A stretch of 64,000 nt of DNA from an uncultured Streptococcus sp. (GTDB lineage Bacteria; Bacillota; Bacilli; Lactobacillales; Streptococcaceae), in the NCBI RefSeq assembly GCF_902463925.1, contig NZ_CABQHE010000002.1:87484-151483 (forward strand). Reading direction: 5' to 3'. Under the pieces are notes generated by a model that was not told the DNA's origin, searched no databases, and worked only from the letters and a program-made list of their open reading frames with translations. This document shows, piece after piece, positions 17,497 to 37,113 of this stretch (positions are counted from its first letter, which is position 1; the number at the start of each line of letters is the position of its first letter). A program made the position numbers and the translations under genes.

Positions 17497-20400
17497 ATGA
17501 AACAAGCAAATCATGTTGTTGAAAAAGTGACAAAATACGCTATTCGTAAATTGTCAGTTGGTGTTGGACCAGTTGCTATTGGAACATTCTTCATAGCAGG
17601 TGGTCTTTTCGTGTCTAAGCCAGTTTCGGCGGATCAGGTTACTACGGATCCATCGGTACATCTGGCTTATGTTACTGAAAATGAATTGACAGCCGAAGAG
17701 CAGAAGCAAGTGGTTCATGCTATTCCAAAGGCATATCAAAATGATGATACTTTTTATCTGGTCTATAAACGTAAGGGAGATAGTCAAGCTACTCTGCCTA
17801 AGACAGGCAGTTCTGACTGGGCGGCAACAGGGTTAGGACTGACGACAGCAACTTTGGCTGTGCTCCTATTTTCAAAAAAATATCGCAAAAAGAGTATTGG
17901 ATTGGTCTTGATTGGAGCAGCTGGGCAAAGCTTACTTATCCCTCTTGAGGTTCTTGCTTTGCAAAATAAAGAGTTGCAGGCTTATAATCAGAATCTAGCT
18001 GTCTCAGATGAGGCGGACCTAGCTAAAGGTGTTATTACCATTGATGGTTATGAGTATGTCGGTTATTTGCGTTACTCATCTAAGCCTGAGCTTGAACAAC
18101 CTTTGGAGAATACTTTGAAAGGACTTGAGCCATCAAGAGAAGATAGAAACACAGCAAGCCGGTATGAAATAGATAAAGAAATAAGTTGGGGAAAAGGAAC
18201 TCAGGAAGCCGGTCACGCAGGTGAATCCTTTGTTCAACCTGCCAATCTAGAGTACACTGACTCAATCAGTGCTAATGGCACGCAAGAATCAGGTCATGAA
18301 GGCGAATCCCTTGTTCAACCAGCAGTCCCAGAGAACACTGTCCCAGAGTACACTGGATCGATCAGTACCGATGGCACGCAAGAATCCGGTCACGAAGGCG
18401 AATCTCTAGTTCAACCAGCAACCCCAGAGTACACAGGTCCAATTAGTGATAACGAAACACAAGAATCCGGTCATGAAGGCGAATCTCTAGTTCAACCAGC
18501 AACACCAGAGTATACAGGTCCAATTAGTGCCAATGGTACGCAAGAATCCGGTCACGAAGGTGAGGCAGCTGTTCAACCTGCTAACCCAGACTATACAGGT
18601 AAACTGGAAGCCAAGGGTACACAGGAATCCGGTCACAAAGGTGAGGCAGCTGTTCAACCTGCTAACCCAGACTATACAGGCAAACTAGAAGCTAAGGGTA
18701 CACAAGAATCAGGTCATGAAGGTGAGGCTATTGTCCAAGCTGAGAATCCTGTTTATACCCCAGTTGTCGGAAGTATCACAGAGACTGAAACGCAAGCCAT
18801 TGATTATCCTATCGAAGTTATTACTGATGATAACAAATATGTGGATGAAGAAGTTGTTGATCAAGAGGGCCAAAAAGGTAGCCAAGAAATCCATAAAGTT
18901 TACCAAACCATTGATGGTGTTAAGATTGGTGAGCCGACTATTGTGTCAGGTAAGGTTATTGAGGTGCCACAACCTAGAAAAATCCGTCGTGGCAGCAAGC
19001 CTCTAGATGGGACAACGACTGAAGAGTCTATTGTAGAGCTTCCATTTAAAGAAATTGTCCAAGAAGATGATACACTTGAGAAAGGCGTTGTGCAGGTTGT
19101 CCAAGAAGGACAAAAAGGACAAAATAAAATTACCAAGATTTATAAGACCTTTAAGGGAAGTAAGACTGCTGAAGAACCAACTGTTACTGAAACAGTGCTA
19201 GTTCCTGCCCAAGATCGTATCGTTCGCAAAGGTACTAAGATATCTGAAAAACCAGTTCTTACACTGACACAGGTTGACAAGGATGACTTGAGTCGCAGTG
19301 CTAAACTTAGCTACAACTTGACTAATCCAGGTTCAGCAGCTATCACGACTATTAAGGCGGTCCTCAAGCAAGATGGACAGGTTATTCAAACGCTTGATAT
19401 TCCTAGCACGACCTTGACTGCTGACTTAACCAACTTAGCCTATTACAAGCCTTATACCCTTACGACAACCATGACCTTTGATCGTGGCAACGGTGAGGAG
19501 AGTCAGGTTTTGGCAGACCAAACTATCCAACTGGATCTCAAGAAGGTTGAGCTTAAAGATTTTACACGTACAGATTTGATCAAGTATGATAATCAAACAG
19601 AGGTGGACGAGACTCGCCTGACAGCTGTGCCTCAGGATCTGACGAATTACTACTTGAAGCTGACTTCTGCGGATCAGAAGACCACTTACTTGGCAGTGAA
19701 AGCCATCGAAGAAACAACAGTTGGTGGCAAGGCGGTTTATAAGGTAACTGCAGAAGCGGATAATTTGGTGCAACGTGATGCCCAAAACCATTTTGCGAAG
19801 ACTTATAGCTATTACATTGAGAAACCTCAGGCTAGCCAAGCCAATGTTTACTATGATTTTGCTGAGTTGGTCAATGCCATTCAGGCTAATCCATCAGGTG
19901 AGTTTAGACTTGGTCAAAGCATGAGTGCTCGCCACGTCGTTCCAAATGGCAAGTCATATATCACGACTGAGTTTACTGGTAAGTTGCTCAGTGATGGTGA
20001 CAAACGCTTTGCCATCTATGATTTAGAGCATCCATTGTTTAATGTCATCAATGGCGGAACGATCAAGAATATCAACTTTGAAAATGTAGACATCAATCGC
20101 CCTGATCAAAATCAAATCGCGACGGTTGGATTTAACCTTAAAAACAAGGGTCTGATTGAAGATGTTAAGGTGACTGGTTCAGTCACTGGTAACAATGACG
20201 TGGCAGGTATCGTCAATAAGATTGATGAAGATGGCAAGGTTGAGAATGTCGCCTTTATTGGTAAGATTAACTCTGTCGGTAATAACTCGACAGTTGGTGG
20301 GATTGCTGGTTCAAACTACATGGGATTCGTCAACAGAGCCTATGTGGATGCGACTATTACAGCTAATAATGCCAATGCAAGTATGTTGGTGCCATTTGTC

Positions 20401-29257: not shown

Positions 29258-31351
29258 ATGACAGAAAAAATTTCCGTAATTATTCCCGTTTACAATGTAG
29301 AAAATCAACTCCAGACCTGTCTAGACAGTGTCTTGGGTCAGACCTATCAAAATATTGAAATCATCCTTATCAATTATGGCTCAATAGACAATAGTGATGA
29401 CATTTGCCGTAGTTATGCTGCTAGGGACTCTCGTATCCTCTATTTTAAAAAGAATAATGGAGGGCTTTCAGATGCTCGCCATATTGGTATTCGTCAGTCT
29501 AAGGGAGCTTACGTAACCTATGTGGATGCTGAGGATTGGGTAGAGTCAACCTATCTAGAGGAGCTTTATAAGGCACTTCAAGTTCACAAGGCAGATATCG
29601 CAGTAGCTAATTACAGTGTTTATAAGGAATCGGAAGATCTCTTTTATTTTTATATCAAGGATGAAGATTATTACGAACAGGTCTATTCACCCGCTCAGAT
29701 TATTGATGGACTCTTTGAAGAAAGCAATAACATCAATATTGCTCTGATTTCAGCCACTGGAAAACTCTACAAACGTTCCTTGTTTAATGACTTACTTTTC
29801 CCAAAAGAGCATGCAGGAGAAGATGGTTTTTTCAACCTTAAGGCCTATCTCATGAGTGAGCGTACGGTTTATCTCAATAAGGGACTTTATGTTTACCGTG
29901 AGAGTCCAGAGATGCCATCGGCGACTTGGATGCAAGATTGGATGATGACTTTGGTTTATGCTATGGAGGAACGCTTGGCTATTGTTGCTAGCCATGGTTT
30001 CTCTCTGGAAAAATACATGGTTACCTATCGTCAGATGCTAGAGACCTGCTTGAAAAATGTGGAAGAACTAGGTCTCACAGATTCTGAAGCCTATCGCTCA
30101 ATTCAGGAAAAATTCCAAGTTTTGAGCTTGGCTCCTCGACGTTATGAGACTAAAAAGCATGCTATTGTCCTAGCAGCTAACTATGCCTATGTTGACCAAG
30201 TGCTTACGACCATAAAATCTATCGTTTTCCATCATCGCAATATTCGTTTTTACTTGATTAACGATGATTTCTCTCAAGAGTGGTTTAGGGGGCTCAACCG
30301 TCATCTAGCTGCTTTTGGTAGTGAAGTGATTAACTGTCGTGTAGATAGCAGTCATATCAAGCAATACAAGACCAATAGTAACTATGCTAGCTATTTACGC
30401 TATTTTGTGACGGACTTTGTATCTGAAGAGAGAGCTCTTTATTTGGATAGTGACATGGTGGTTACTGGTTCGCTAGAAGACCTCTTTACCCTTGATTTGC
30501 AAGGCCGTTCTTTGGCTGCTGTACGTGACTATGCTATTCAAGTTCAGAATCGTCAGATGATGTTTGATGCAGATTTCATGGTGATTGATATGACCTATTG
30601 GAAGCAATACAACATGAGAAACCACTTGATTGACATGACCAGCGAATGGCATGACAAGGTACCATTTGCCGAGCAGTCAATTCTTAATATGGTTTTTTGT
30701 AACAACTGGTTGGCTTTGTCTTTTGACAACAACTACGCTGTGACCAAGTCTAGTCTAGTTGGCTACCATCTGCCAAATGGTCAAGACTATCCAAAGGTTC
30801 TACACTATGATTCACACCGTAAGCCCTGGTTACCTTTGGCTTGCCAAGCTTATCGTGAGGTTTGGTGGTTCTATGCCCAAATGGATTGGTCAGAAGTAGC
30901 TGGAAATGCTTCCTTACTGCCACTTTCAGAGGACATGCTTTATCCTAAGGGCCGTCCATTTACATGTTTAGTTTACACCAACATTTCAGAAATCCCTCAT
31001 TTGACAGATCTAATCTCGGCTCTTCCTAAGGTACAATTTAAAATTGCCTCACGCCAGCATGTGTCAGACAAATTGGCCCAATTGATTACCTATCCAAATG
31101 TGACGGTTTACTCAGCCATTGCGGGCTTAAATGGGCTAGATTTGGAATTGGTGCGTACTAGTGACCTGCTTTTGGATATCAATCCAGGCAGAAAAGTAGT
31201 GGAAATTCTTGATGCCTTTAGGTTTGAAAACAAACCGATTTTAGGGTTTGAGGACCTCAAGTCAACCAAGCATAACCAACAGACCTACTCAAGAGATCGT
31301 TGGAAAGAAATGGCTGAGACCATCCGCCAGATGCGTAAGAAGAGCCTGTAA
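29258..31351 (+). CDS. bifunctional glycosyltransferase (N-terminal GT2 plus central GT8 domain), Gly-like enzyme of serine-rich-repeat-adhesin glycosylation loci
   Basis: 697 aa. GT-A DxD context SVIIPVYNVE…YVDAED. Second domain with YLDSDMVV (GT8 DxD). Sits immediately upstream of secY2, as the gly gene does in gspB-type loci. Confidence 0.8.
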   Translation: MTEKISVIIPVYNVENQLQTCLDSVLGQTYQNIEIILINYGSIDNSDDICRSYAARDSRILYFKKNNGGLSDARHIGIRQSKGAYVTYVDAEDWVESTYLEELYKALQVHKADIAVANYSVYKESEDLFYFYIKDEDYYEQVYSPAQIIDGLFEESNNINIALISATGKLYKRSLFNDLLFPKEHAGEDGFFNLKAYLMSERTVYLNKGLYVYRESPEMPSATWMQDWMMTLVYAMEERLAIVASHGFSLEKYMVTYRQMLETCLKNVEELGLTDSEAYRSIQEKFQVLSLAPRRYETKKHAIVLAANYAYVDQVLTTIKSIVFHHRNIRFYLINDDFSQEWFRGLNRHLAAFGSEVINCRVDSSHIKQYKTNSNYASYLRYFVTDFVSEERALYLDSDMVVTGSLEDLFTLDLQGRSLAAVRDYAIQVQNRQMMFDADFMVIDMTYWKQYNMRNHLIDMTSEWHDKVPFAEQSILNMVFCNNWLALSFDNNYAVTKSSLVGYHLPNGQDYPKVLHYDSHRKPWLPLACQAYREVWWFYAQMDWSEVAGNASLLPLSEDMLYPKGRPFTCLVYTNISEIPHLTDLISALPKVQFKIASRQHVSDKLAQLITYPNVTVYSAIAGLNGLDLELVRTSDLLLDINPGRKVVEILDAFRFENKPILGFEDLKSTKHNQQTYSRDRWKEMAETIRQMRKKSL

Positions 31352-31445
31352 TCCTTTATTTGGATAAGTGGTCTGAAATTTAGTTTATGTCTCATTTCTA
31401 ACGAAAAATATCAGTCTGTCTATAGGGCAGGAAGTAGGAGTAACA

Positions 31446-32474
31446 GTGAAAAAAATTGGTCAATCGATAATCACAAAACGTGTGTTATGGACCGTCTTTT
31501 TCCTCTTTATTTATTGTTTGGGAAATCGCTTGGTTCTACCGTTTGTGGATTTGAAAAATGCAAATATCTTTGGGGGAGCCATGGCTTCCTTGGGTTTCTC
31601 TAGTGCCATGATGGGTGGGAACCTCAGCTCTATGTCTCTTTTTTCAGTAGGCTTGTCACCCTGGATGTCAGCAATGATTCTCTGGCAGATGTTTTCTTTT
31701 TCTAAGAAAATGGGCTTAAAAAATCTTCCCGTCGAGATTCAGGATCGTAGACGAATGTACTTAGCTCTAGCAATTGCACTTGTCCAATCTCTGGCAGTGT
31801 CCTTGAACCTACCTATCGTTTCTGGGGTTAATGCCGGTCTCGTCGTTTTCATGAATACCATTTTATTGATTGCTGGGACCTTTCTCTTGGTTTGGTTATC
31901 AGACCTTAACTCTCTCCTTGGAATTGGAGGCTCCATTGTTATCTTGATGGCAAGTATGATGGCCAATCTGCCTTATCAAATCATGGATAGCGTTGAAAAG
32001 CTAGGTATTGGTTGGGAGGTTTTGTTTCCTCTGATTCTGTTCAGTTTGATTTTCCTCTATGTTTCAGGGGTTGTGCAGAGGGCTAGGTATCGTATCCCAA
32101 TCAATAAAATCAATATTCATAACCGCTTCAAACAATATTCTTACTTGGATATTATGTTGACCCCAGCCGGAGGGATACCTTTCATGTATGCCATGTCACT
32201 AGTCAGCATTCCACAGTATGTCTTTATGCTGATTCAATTTATCCATCCTGAAAACAAGTGGATCAGTGGTGCCATCAAGGCCTTGACGGTCGGTCAACCT
32301 CTTTGGTTGGCTGTTTATCTGGTCATGCTCTTCCTAAGACAGGTGAGGAAAACTCATCATTATCAATGGTATTTGGTGCTTTGGCATCTGCAACAGGTCT
32401 TGCTTTTCTTGCTAAACGTAAGACAGATGAAGAACGTGAGGACTATTAGTAGTTTAGTATTGCAAAAGATATAA
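31446..32474 (+). pseudogene. secY2: accessory Sec translocase SecY2, truncated after about 290 codons
   Basis: GTG start with AGGAG RBS. Multi-TM SecY-like N-terminal two-thirds. The last ~50 codons (…[16 protein letters not shown]…) look like out-of-frame translation of another gene. No asp1-3/secA2/gtfAB downstream. Confidence 0.7.
32300..32449 (+). pseudogene. orphan 3' end of a gene for an LPXTG cell-wall-anchored protein
   Basis: In the +2 frame relative to secY2: …[39 protein letters not shown]. This is a complete sortase sorting signal (LPKTG, hydrophobic stretch, charged tail). Confidence 0.6.
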
Positions 32475-32507
32475 CAATACTCAGAAAAGCACAAAAAACA
32501 CCTCTAT

Positions 32508-32545
32508 GTTAGATAACAATCTAGCTATGAGGTGTTTTTTATTTG
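32508..32545 (+). terminator. rho-independent terminator
   Basis: ACACCTC…GAGGTGT hairpin followed by TTTTTTATTT. Confidence 0.5.
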
Positions 32546-32676
32546 GGAATGTTGAGGTGGTAGACATTTCTTACTGTATGTCCCATGCTCCAAAGGCTGT
32601 TAAAGAAGTAGCAACTTACGTTGTTGATAACTTTTCAGATGCCGTTACACATTTGGAAAACTTGTTAGATTTATGA
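32539..32676 (+). pseudogene. possible 3' remnant of a Cof-type HAD phosphatase gene
   Basis: Translation …MSHAPKAVKEVATYVVDNFSDAVTHLENLLDL* resembles the Cof/YidA C-terminus (MGNA…VK..A.YVT..N..DGV…LE.LL). No upstream body. Confidence 0.3.
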
Positions 32677-33257
32677 TGTTAACATTCAATATCTAGAATG
32701 AAAGTAGATTGGAACTAAGTCCTAATCTACTTTTTGTTATAACTTGATTGAAGTTGAATAGCTTAGATTTAAAAGAAGATATGGTGGAAAAACATTTCGA
32801 TAAGAACGGTGACACAGCTTCATCTGTTGATAGCATAACTAACATTGAGATGAGGGTAAAGTCTCTAAATACAAGAGGCCAATTAATCTCTCAAATGAGG
32901 AAAAAGCAAACAAAGGTAAGATTGAGGAAACTATCAATATCTCAGACTTCATCGTATCGTTAACGGGTCTAGGACTTGGCCGTAACGGATGTAAGAAGAA
33001 TAAAAAGGTCACAAAGGTCAAACAAGGAAAATAATTAAAAAACCTGAAACACTCAGGCATGCCCAGACAGAAAGAAAATCTCAAGTTGCATAGAGCACTT
33101 AGATTTTTTTGTTAATGAATTGTCTTAAGGTTACGGAAATTACTAAATATGATAAAAGTATGAAAGGACTTTACTTACTTTTACAGCACACATTCGCTTG
33201 TGGTAACATCACTTCTATACTACAATATAGGAGAAGAAGCAATAAGAGGAGAATGCC

Positions 33258-36546: not shown

Positions 36547-37113
36547 TTGGTCGACTTCCTTTTCTTTTTTCCAAATCCTAATAGAATTGTTGCTCATATA
36601 ATTAAAAGAAAGCACTCTATTCGTGTTATCGGTACGGCTTACAGCAATCGTTCAGATTCTATTATCTTTGAAAATGGTAAGGCTCGCTACATCACAAAAG
36701 CAGGCGAAATCGGACGTAGCATCTTTGTCTACAGCCCAGCAACTAAGGCATGGAACTACTTTGATAAAGAAGGTAACCGTGTCACAGGCGTCAGTATATT
36801 GATGGAAATCTCTATTACTTCAAGGAAGATGGTAGCCAAGCTAAGGGTGAAATTGTCGAGGAAAATGGCATTAAGTATTACTATGAGCCAGGCTCAGGTA
36901 TTCTCGCTAGCGGATGCTACCTCCAAGTAGGTGATGACCAGTGGATGTACTTTAAACAAGAAGGTTCACTAGCTATCGGCCAAGTTCGTGCGGACGGTGG
37001 TTTACCTCAAATACTTTGATGAAAATGGTATCCAATACAAAGGCAAGGCCGTTAAGGTCGGCAGTTGTTACAAGTACTATGACGAGGGAAAATTCTCAAG
37101 AAAAAGATCGTGA
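36547..37113 (+). pseudogene. C-terminal glucan-binding (YG / cell-wall-binding) repeat region of a glucosyltransferase or glucan-binding protein, with at least 2 frameshifts and no catalytic domain
   Basis: Three frames together give …AWNYFDKEGNRVTG / QYIDGNLYYFKEDGSQAKGEIVEENGIKYYYEPGSGILASGCYLQVGDDQWMYFKQEG / YLKYFDENGIQYKGKAVKVGSCYKYYDEGKFSRKRS*. These are classic Gtf/Gbp YG repeats. Confidence 0.68.

Follow-up and report, generated by a model that had tools for sequence, protein, structure and literature searches.

What has become of an accessory Sec (aSec) export locus in which the first gene, coding for a glycosyltransferase (GT), is complete, the second gene, secY2, loses its reading frame, and at the very same point another frame reads the LPXTG sorting signal of a serine-rich-repeat (SRR) adhesin? 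This arrangement is seen in a stretch of 64,000 nucleotides from an uncultured Streptococcus sp. (contig NZ_CABQHE010000002.1, positions 87,484 to 151,483), below referred to as the window. With high confidence, we interpret it as the scar of an illegitimate, microhomology-mediated deletion in S. vestibularis, by which ~16.7–16.9 kb of the aSec/SRR locus were lost. No description of this deletion was found in the literature. The features of the locus are listed in Table 1.

The left flank of the deletion, from sbcD through secY2, shows 94% identity to S. vestibularis ATCC 49124 (L002; related contigs and loci are denoted here by L numbers) and 88–90% identity to S. salivarius loci; the scan with this flank covered one genome per species and found the 5' part of secY2 in the salivarius group. 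In 10/10 intact loci the homology stops at position 32333. At the protein level, the SecY2 models NF009082 (E 1.3e-96) and TIGR02920 match only residues 1–297 (model positions ~1–294 of 406), and in tblastn with the intact SecY2 of S. vestibularis (408 amino acids, aa) residues 1–297 align at 92%, with nothing aligned beyond. A full-length SecY2 has about 400 aa and 10 transmembrane segments; here, residues 1–296 of 408 are left, and the C-terminal ~27% (codons 297–408, the last 112) is gone. A preliminary description of this DNA, made from the sequence alone, had placed the frame break at about codon 290. The break is real, its position is after codon 296 of 408, and a full-length SecY2 match in one frame, which was to be checked, is ruled out, as the alignment breaks at codon 296.

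From position 32324, the +2 frame reads HALPKTG...EDY, a hydrophobic helix, and a stop codon at 32447–32449. As the preliminary description had it, this is a complete sorting signal, matching Pfam Gram_pos_anchor (E 1.8e-9) and TIGR01167 (E 6e-8). The tail is out of frame with secY2 and lacks a start codon and a signal peptide of its own; the sole in-frame start yields a 63-aa open reading frame (ORF) without a signal peptide, and the motif is joined to no secreted protein. Of the parts of an SRR adhesin, that is, a long signal peptide, SRR-1, a binding region, a long SRR-2, and an LPXTG anchor, only the anchor is present. The suggested origin of the tail from such an adhesin is borne out by seven contigs (L082, L083, L085, L148, L161, L175, and L177), where the same tail ends a long SRR ORF and is followed by the same terminator and maa. 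Homology of the right flank to intact adhesin ends begins at 32324. In L082, L161, and L175, the intact SRR adhesin ORFs end in DNA that is 96.7–98% identical to the remnant, and its C-terminal 27 residues are identical to a hypothetical protein of Streptococcus vestibularis. The protein-database search with the 42-aa tail returned short fragments only, a consequence of SRR genes being seldom called correctly by gene callers. The terminator, also anticipated in the preliminary description, is a hairpin with a 12-bp stem and a U-run (−29.4 kcal/mol, z = −3.5), and its sequence is seen 3' of the intact adhesins in L082, L161, and the S. salivarius-type contig L089 as well. In S. salivarius-type contigs, the last SRR gene alone has both the tail and the terminator of the window, while earlier SRR genes share only the coding tail.

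The two flanks overlap by 10 bp. In the three-way alignment (intact secY2 ...TATCTGGTCATGCTCTTCGTTCTAGG..., adhesin ...CGTGGTAGCCATGCTCTTCCTAAGACAGG..., window ...TATCTGGTCATGCTCTTCCTAAGACAGG...), CATGCTCTTC is present in both parents, at codons ~293–296 of secY2 and at the adhesin codons for S-H-A-L-P, and the window has one copy of it. It is found in the intact secY2 alleles L001, L003–L006, and L059, and in the adhesin ends L082, L083, and L085. The chance of a 10-bp identity at a random join is ~1e-6, hence the overlap is not accidental. A repeat in both parents, one retained copy, and colinear flanks are what characterizes a microhomology-mediated deletion. Similar to RecA-independent microhomology deletions, a single copy of the 10-bp direct repeat is left and the intervening DNA is lost, and a second deletion type, described below, also has a 10-bp repeat; compared with typical slippage, however, ~17 kb is a large distance for 10-bp repeats. 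About 40 other 10-bp matches are available between secY2 and the deleted interval, so that the chosen pair is not special, and it would be a coincidence if this pair had been used in two independent 17-kb events.

Table 1. Features of the deletion locus in the window
Feature	Coordinates	Strand	Evidence
Promoter-like site 5' of the GT gene, TAGAAA-17-TATAAT with TG	29111..29139	+	Consensus scan, 10/12 matches
GT gene, intact, 697 aa, GT2 + GT8	29258..31351	+	Pfam, NCBIfam, and PDB matches
secY2 5' remnant, codons 1–296 of 408	31446..32333	+	NCBIfam, nucleotide homology, tblastn
Hybrid ORF, 342 aa: SecY2 residues 1–296 and 46 out-of-frame residues from the adhesin tail	31446..32474	+	ORF call
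Deletion junction, 10-bp microhomology CATGCTCTTC	32324..32333	+	Three-way alignment with intact secY2 loci and adhesin ends
SRR adhesin 3' remnant, last 41 codons and stop	32324..32449	+	Gram_pos_anchor; nucleotide identity to intact adhesin ends
Former adhesin gene's intrinsic terminator, now immediately 3' of the hybrid ORF	32493..32547	+	RNA fold
56-aa ORF, HAD-like remnant	32506-32676	+	Weak match to the C-terminal end of Cof-type HAD (Hydrolase_3 positions 220–247 of 255, E 0.016)

Intact loci have the order GT (697 aa), secY2 (408), asp1 (523), asp2 (512), asp3 (148), secA2 (791), gtfA (502), gtfB (450), asp4, asp5, and then the start of a Gtf3/GtfC-like gene. The 697-aa GT ortholog lies directly 5' of secY2 in L001–L008, and the GT–secY2 flank beside sbcCD is syntenic across S. 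vestibularis and S. salivarius. The published locus tags of S. salivarius JIM8777 agree with this order: asp1 1467, asp2 1466, and secA2 1464 (PMC5826255), and srpA 1458, srpB 1457, and srpC 1456 (PMC6973325, supplements). The 10-kb downstream flanks of the genome loci end inside gtfC and contain no match to the adhesin tail.

Contigs with the exact Maa of the window form two groups, one with the deletion (L081, L084) and one with an intact adhesin end (L082, L083, L085). In the latter, the end of a long serine-rich ORF with SESQSVSNSESASTSASV-type and SVSSSLSESLKTS-type repeats lies directly 5' of the terminator, HAD-like remnant, and maa of the window; the supplements of PMC6973325 list the same repeat motifs for SrpC of S. 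salivarius and for the one SRR protein (2281 aa) of S. vestibularis F0396. Two contigs from a metagenome scan with Maa, L161 and L175, contain gtfB, asp4/asp5, gtfC, one SRR adhesin, the terminator, the HAD-like remnant, maa, marR, and an MFS gene, all in one orientation. The adhesin of these two contigs has about 1,860–1,950 codons and begins with MFFRRNEGQYRETERVTRFKLVKSGKHW; no part of an SRR adhesin is missing from the orthologs in L161, L175, and L148, which have the signal peptide MFFRRNEGQYRE...KSGKHW, 31–38% Ser, and the same tail. The synteny comparison proposed in the preliminary description is answered by these loci: intact relatives have secY2 through gtfC, one SRR adhesin, and maa in the same orientation. 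L161 overlaps L002 by 2.5 kb at 95.7% identity, and L175 by 2.3 kb at 97.7%. The joined maps give a loss of 16,694 bp (L161) or 16,916 bp (L175), the size being approximate because the number of SRR repeats differs between strains. Searches with the binding region of the L082 adhesin and with the N-terminus of GtfC returned fragments on short contigs only, with no walk across the intact locus.

With S. salivarius JIM8777 (SrpA/SrpB/SrpC) and S. vestibularis F0396/ATCC 49124, the window shares the site by sbcCD, the 697-aa GT as the first gene, the 5' part of secY2 (92% aa identity), and an adhesin tail and terminator orthologous to those of the last SRR gene of that cluster. It differs from them by the absence of the 16.7–16.9 kb holding secY2 codons 297–408, asp1–5, secA2, gtfA, gtfB, gtfC, and the adhesin except for 41 codons. 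The S. salivarius cluster has three adhesin genes and then a GH70 gene, whereas the ancestor of the window would have had one adhesin followed by maa. The context of P0002, of the S. salivarius type with several tandem SRR genes and then GH70, was considered as an ancestor of the window and rejected. A separate observation concerns L181, where a collapsed first SRR gene (1366–2200) stands directly after gtfC, with stops in the signal peptide, few SRR repeats, and an LPKTG tail of its own, and is followed by another SRR adhesin gene, which is intact; collapse inside SRR genes seems to be common in this group.

In tblastn with the L002 proteins, no asp1–5, secA2, gtfA, gtfB, or gtfC is found in the whole 64-kb window, the secY2 stump being the only match, which agrees with the absence of asp1–3, secA2, and gtfAB noted earlier. 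The window lacks SecA2 and Asp1–Asp3 (plus Asp4 and Asp5 here) of an aSec system, and it lacks the priming pair GtfA/GtfB, present in the intact relatives L002 and L008. We infer that the strain makes no aSec translocon and no SRR adhesin from this locus.

The ancestor would have had the order GT-secY2-asp1-asp2-asp3-secA2-gtfA-gtfB-asp4-asp5-gtfC, one SRR LPXTG adhesin, the terminator, and maa. Recombination between the two copies of CATGCTCTTC, one at secY2 codons ~293–296 and one just 5' of the LPKTG motif of the adhesin, would have removed secY2 from codon 297 on (112 codons), every other gene for export and priming glycosylation, and the adhesin except for its last 41 codons. The GT gene and the secY2 stump would now be co-transcribed, with the transcript ending at the old adhesin terminator, and the deletion allele would spread between strains via natural transformation and homologous recombination.

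The same junction is seen in at least ten independent assemblies (L081, L084, and L096–L103) from different samples and assemblers, drawn from ENA, NCBI, Logan, and a public metagenome contig collection. Across the junction, L081 and the window are 100% identical. Contigs in which an intact adhesin end stands beside maa are 97.6–99% identical to deletion-bearing contigs in the shared DNA; judged from sequence comparison, the locus is a presence/absence polymorphism within one species. This recurrence settles the concern, raised in the preliminary description, that the join is an assembly artefact. SRR genes are indeed repetitive and break short-read assemblies, and some of the contigs are chimeric, as with the high-GC foreign DNA in the upstream part of L103; however, the join is a unique 10-bp overlap, far below the k-mer length of assemblers and outside the SRR repeats, and its identical form comes from different samples and pipelines, so that a mis-assembly caused by repeats is next to impossible. 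Equally negligible is the probability of the reverse history, with the window as the ancestral state and an aSec/SRR island gained by the relatives through insertion. In several streptococci, aSec-SRR loci behave as accessory genomic islands (PMC6973325); here, however, two-thirds of secY2 and the last 41 adhesin codons stand in an out-of-frame fusion, and such fragments cannot predate their source genes, the GT–secY2 flank is syntenic beside sbcCD in both S. vestibularis and S. salivarius, and an insertion requires target-site features and complete genes on both sides, neither of which is seen. It is very improbable, too, that the 342-aa hybrid ORF is a functional new protein, e.g., a truncated SecY2 with a retained role. 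Its start codon and ribosome-binding site are kept, and the ratio of non-synonymous to synonymous divergence (dN/dS) between the remnant alleles is low (0.18), but this value is expected if the differences are inherited from functional alleles, and the remnants resemble different intact secY2 alleles. Moreover, the 46-aa tail is an out-of-frame read-through, the partners SecA2 and Asp1–5 are gone from the window, and the commonest metagenome variant of the hybrid ORF (P0021, 307 aa, 23 contigs) has an additional stop in the out-of-frame part, hence the hybrid tail is not conserved. We infer that the hybrid ORF is non-functional.

Several observations weigh against the deletion as interpreted here, or against its simplest form. 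No single contig covers the whole intact locus; its map from secY2 to maa was put together from L002 and either L161 or L175, and the absence of a second aSec locus applies to the 64-kb window only. The secY2 stump shows no excess of non-synonymous change, with 15 synonymous and 8 non-synonymous changes on the window branch, and 16 and 7 on the branch of the intact L002; given such similar counts, the loss of function is deduced from the anatomy of the locus and not from decay. The dN/dS tests for relaxed selection on the secY2 remnant and for continued selection on the GT are uninformative, as recombination with intact alleles confounds them and the branch counts are alike. Finally, the junction stands on haplotypes that are just 85.7% identical over the 133 bp beside it (window 32201–32333 vs. 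L096 10756–10888), a pattern that a single recent event does not predict and that calls for either recombination reaching the junction or more than a single origin. Over these last 133 bp, the window is close to S. salivarius-type alleles (96–97%), and L096 to L003 (94%). Left of CATGCTCTTC, three variants are seen, CTGGT (window), CTGGC (L084), and CTAGC (L096–L103). The secY2 remnants of L096–L101 are 100% identical, while the adjoining GT alleles differ by up to 0.26 in synonymous divergence (dS), a clear sign of recombination.

Five contigs (L124, L128, L132, L136, and L176; e.g., L128 8532–9293) have a different deletion, which we call type B, as opposed to type A of the window. In type B, secY2 is kept 54 bp further (to nucleotide 942, equivalent to L002 10939) and is joined directly to SRR-2 repeats, leaving 0.5–1.4 kb of these repeats and the LPXTG tail; the junction is a 10-bp microhomology, AATCTCAGAA, with 5–8 copies in the SRR-2 region of intact adhesins. 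As this is a second, different junction, the pathway has been lost at least twice. The existence of type B alleles (all five contigs) and the multiple copies of AATCTCAGAA also open a two-step route to type A, possible but on balance unlikely, with type B formed first (secY2 remnant, ~0.5 kb of SRR repeats, tail) and then a ~0.6-kb deletion between imperfect 14-bp TAG[T/C]CATGCTCTTC repeats. The L096 haplotype of type A differs from type B by 3/530 nucleotides downstream and by ~3% over the 123 bp with which the secY2 remnant ends, and its junction, CTAGCCATG..., is the product expected of such a secondary deletion. The haplotype of the window (CTGGTCATG..., S. salivarius-like over the last 133 bp), however, is 13–15% different from all type B alleles seen, and no type B allele was found on its background; the end product is the same either way, and the reading as a deletion scar is unchanged. 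The preliminary description had assumed one deletion from secY2 into the 3' end of a downstream LPXTG protein gene: the deletion, both of its flanks, and their colinearity stand, and a single step is likely. With flanks that are mosaic, the junction of the window may go back to one origin with recombination up to the junction, to a stepwise route, or to recurrence; the feature is the same under each.

The GT gene is intact, as stated in the preliminary description. Both Pfam domains are present, Glycos_transf_2 at residues 6–179 (E 2.8e-32) and Glyco_transf_8 at residues 303–525 (E 4.5e-33), with the motif DAED in the N-terminal GT2 domain and DSD in the central GT8 domain; the C-terminal region is GtfB/Gtf2-like, with an NCBIfam GtfB-like match at residues 571–684 and a match of residues 570–672 to Gtf2 (PDB 5e9t, E 5e-9). 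The protein has the exact sequence of WP_303950389.1 from S. vestibularis. Residues 3–285, the N-terminal third, match PDB 5hea, "Putative glycosyltransferase (GalT1)" (E 5e-57), which we take to be the C-terminal domain of S. parasanguinis dGT1. Residues 299–675 match PDB 5gvv (E 2e-60), which is GlyE of S. pneumoniae (PMC10709319). The C-terminal half of the GT is similar to GlyE, and the N-terminal third to the GalT1 entry; unlike these, the GT of the window joins both catalytic modules in one 697-aa chain, GT2 and then GT8, and in this strain it has no linked substrate and no linked priming enzymes. With its GT-A domains, DxD motifs, and position in an aSec locus, all read from the sequence only, the retained GT is by homology predicted to be an SRR-glycan elongating enzyme of the GlyE or dGT1-GalT1 type.

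The GT is complete at 697 aa in every deletion-bearing contig that covers the whole gene (7 distinct full-length sequences; L176 covers it in part only). An apparent 5' truncation in L103 was rejected as decay, since this contig is a chimera with high-GC foreign DNA; actinobacterium-like high-GC sequence fused to Streptococcus DNA is seen in L103 1–6165 and also in L109 1–3000, both being chimeric metagenome assemblies. Pairwise dN/dS of the GT is ~0.1, a value in which selection before and after the deletion is inseparable and which is confounded by recombination with intact strains. In S. salivarius, the unlinked GtfE/GtfF prime SRR proteins and many other surface proteins (PMC5826255; PMC6973325), so that other substrates of the GT are conceivable; its repurposing after the loss of the pathway is speculation. 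The promoter-like site 5' of the GT gene is a consensus match, and the count of such sites in the region is not above that in shuffled controls; it would presumably mark the start of the former aSec operon transcript. Separately, P0035, a 118-aa partial glycosyl transferase of Streptococcus thermophilus, belongs to the same 90%-identity cluster as the retained GT, which hints that S. thermophilus also retains at least part of the GT gene.

Downstream of the terminator, the HAD-like remnant is also found 3' of intact adhesins (L082, L161); therefore, it is older than the deletion and unrelated to it. Next come maa, marR, and the MFS gene, all intact, so that the earlier statement that only further gene remnants follow is overstated. 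In the spacer between the adhesin terminator and maa, a ~55-bp indel at ~32800–32860 sets the window apart from L082–L085. Further 3' of the MFS gene, at 36547–37113 (+ strand), there are short ORFs, one of which (36988–37113) has a choline-binding-type repeat (Choline_bind_3, E 5.7e-5); these ORFs may be what is left of a glucan-binding or GH70 protein. The SRR genes of S. salivarius-type contigs are followed by a GH70 gene. On the other side of the locus, 17497–23319 (+ strand) codes for a 1940-aa surface protein with a YSIRK signal, G5 domains, N- and C-terminal regions of M26 IgA1-protease (E 2e-205), and a weak LPXTG-like match near the N-terminus. Transposase remnants (HTH_21, rve_3/rve_2) lie between this protease gene and sbcD, at ~23323–23995 (+ strand), according to gene calls on the identical contig L081. 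Some related contigs, such as L100, have lacZ in place of the protease gene.

Latousakis et al. (2019; PMC6973325) catalogued incomplete aSec clusters and SRR-protein pseudogenes among commensal Lactobacillales; in their list, S. vestibularis appears only as a species with an intact SRR protein. The window resembles the catalogued cases as natural decay of aSec and SRR proteins in commensals, with strains having incomplete clusters and SRR proteins that are split or lack an anchor. Those are mostly frameshifted or split SRR genes or clusters without some genes, whereas here the deletion of a whole pathway is resolved down to its breakpoints, microhomology, and spread in the population. The deletion adds a precisely mapped case to a known kind of gene loss, and no new mechanism or system. 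A broader scenario, which we consider rather improbable, is that aSec/SRR loss is both recurrent and selected in S. vestibularis, with independent type A and type B microhomology deletions in the same ~60-bp stretch of secY2 (type A possibly of more than one origin) spread by transformation, and with the GT kept under selection and extending GtfE/GtfF-primed glycans on other surface proteins.

In S. salivarius, a close relative, SRR adhesins and the SecA2/SecY2 system dedicated to their export are the main factors of adhesion and colonisation (PMC5826255; PMC6973325). Among the S. vestibularis-like strains of human metagenomes, a sizeable share have clean null alleles of the whole pathway, with at least two junctions. 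These are natural knockouts for the study of niche adaptation, be it through the loss of adhesion or of immune visibility, and they offer a natural test of whether a glycosyltransferase of SRR glycans also acts on other substrates. The two junction sequences (CTGGTCATGCTCTTCCTAAGACAGG and its variants; GAGCAAATCTCAGAATCGCAATCAG) can serve as markers for strain-level metagenomics, typable by polymerase chain reaction or by k-mers. The value of the null alleles also lies in the evidence that the loss of a major adhesion pathway recurs and spreads in a human commensal.

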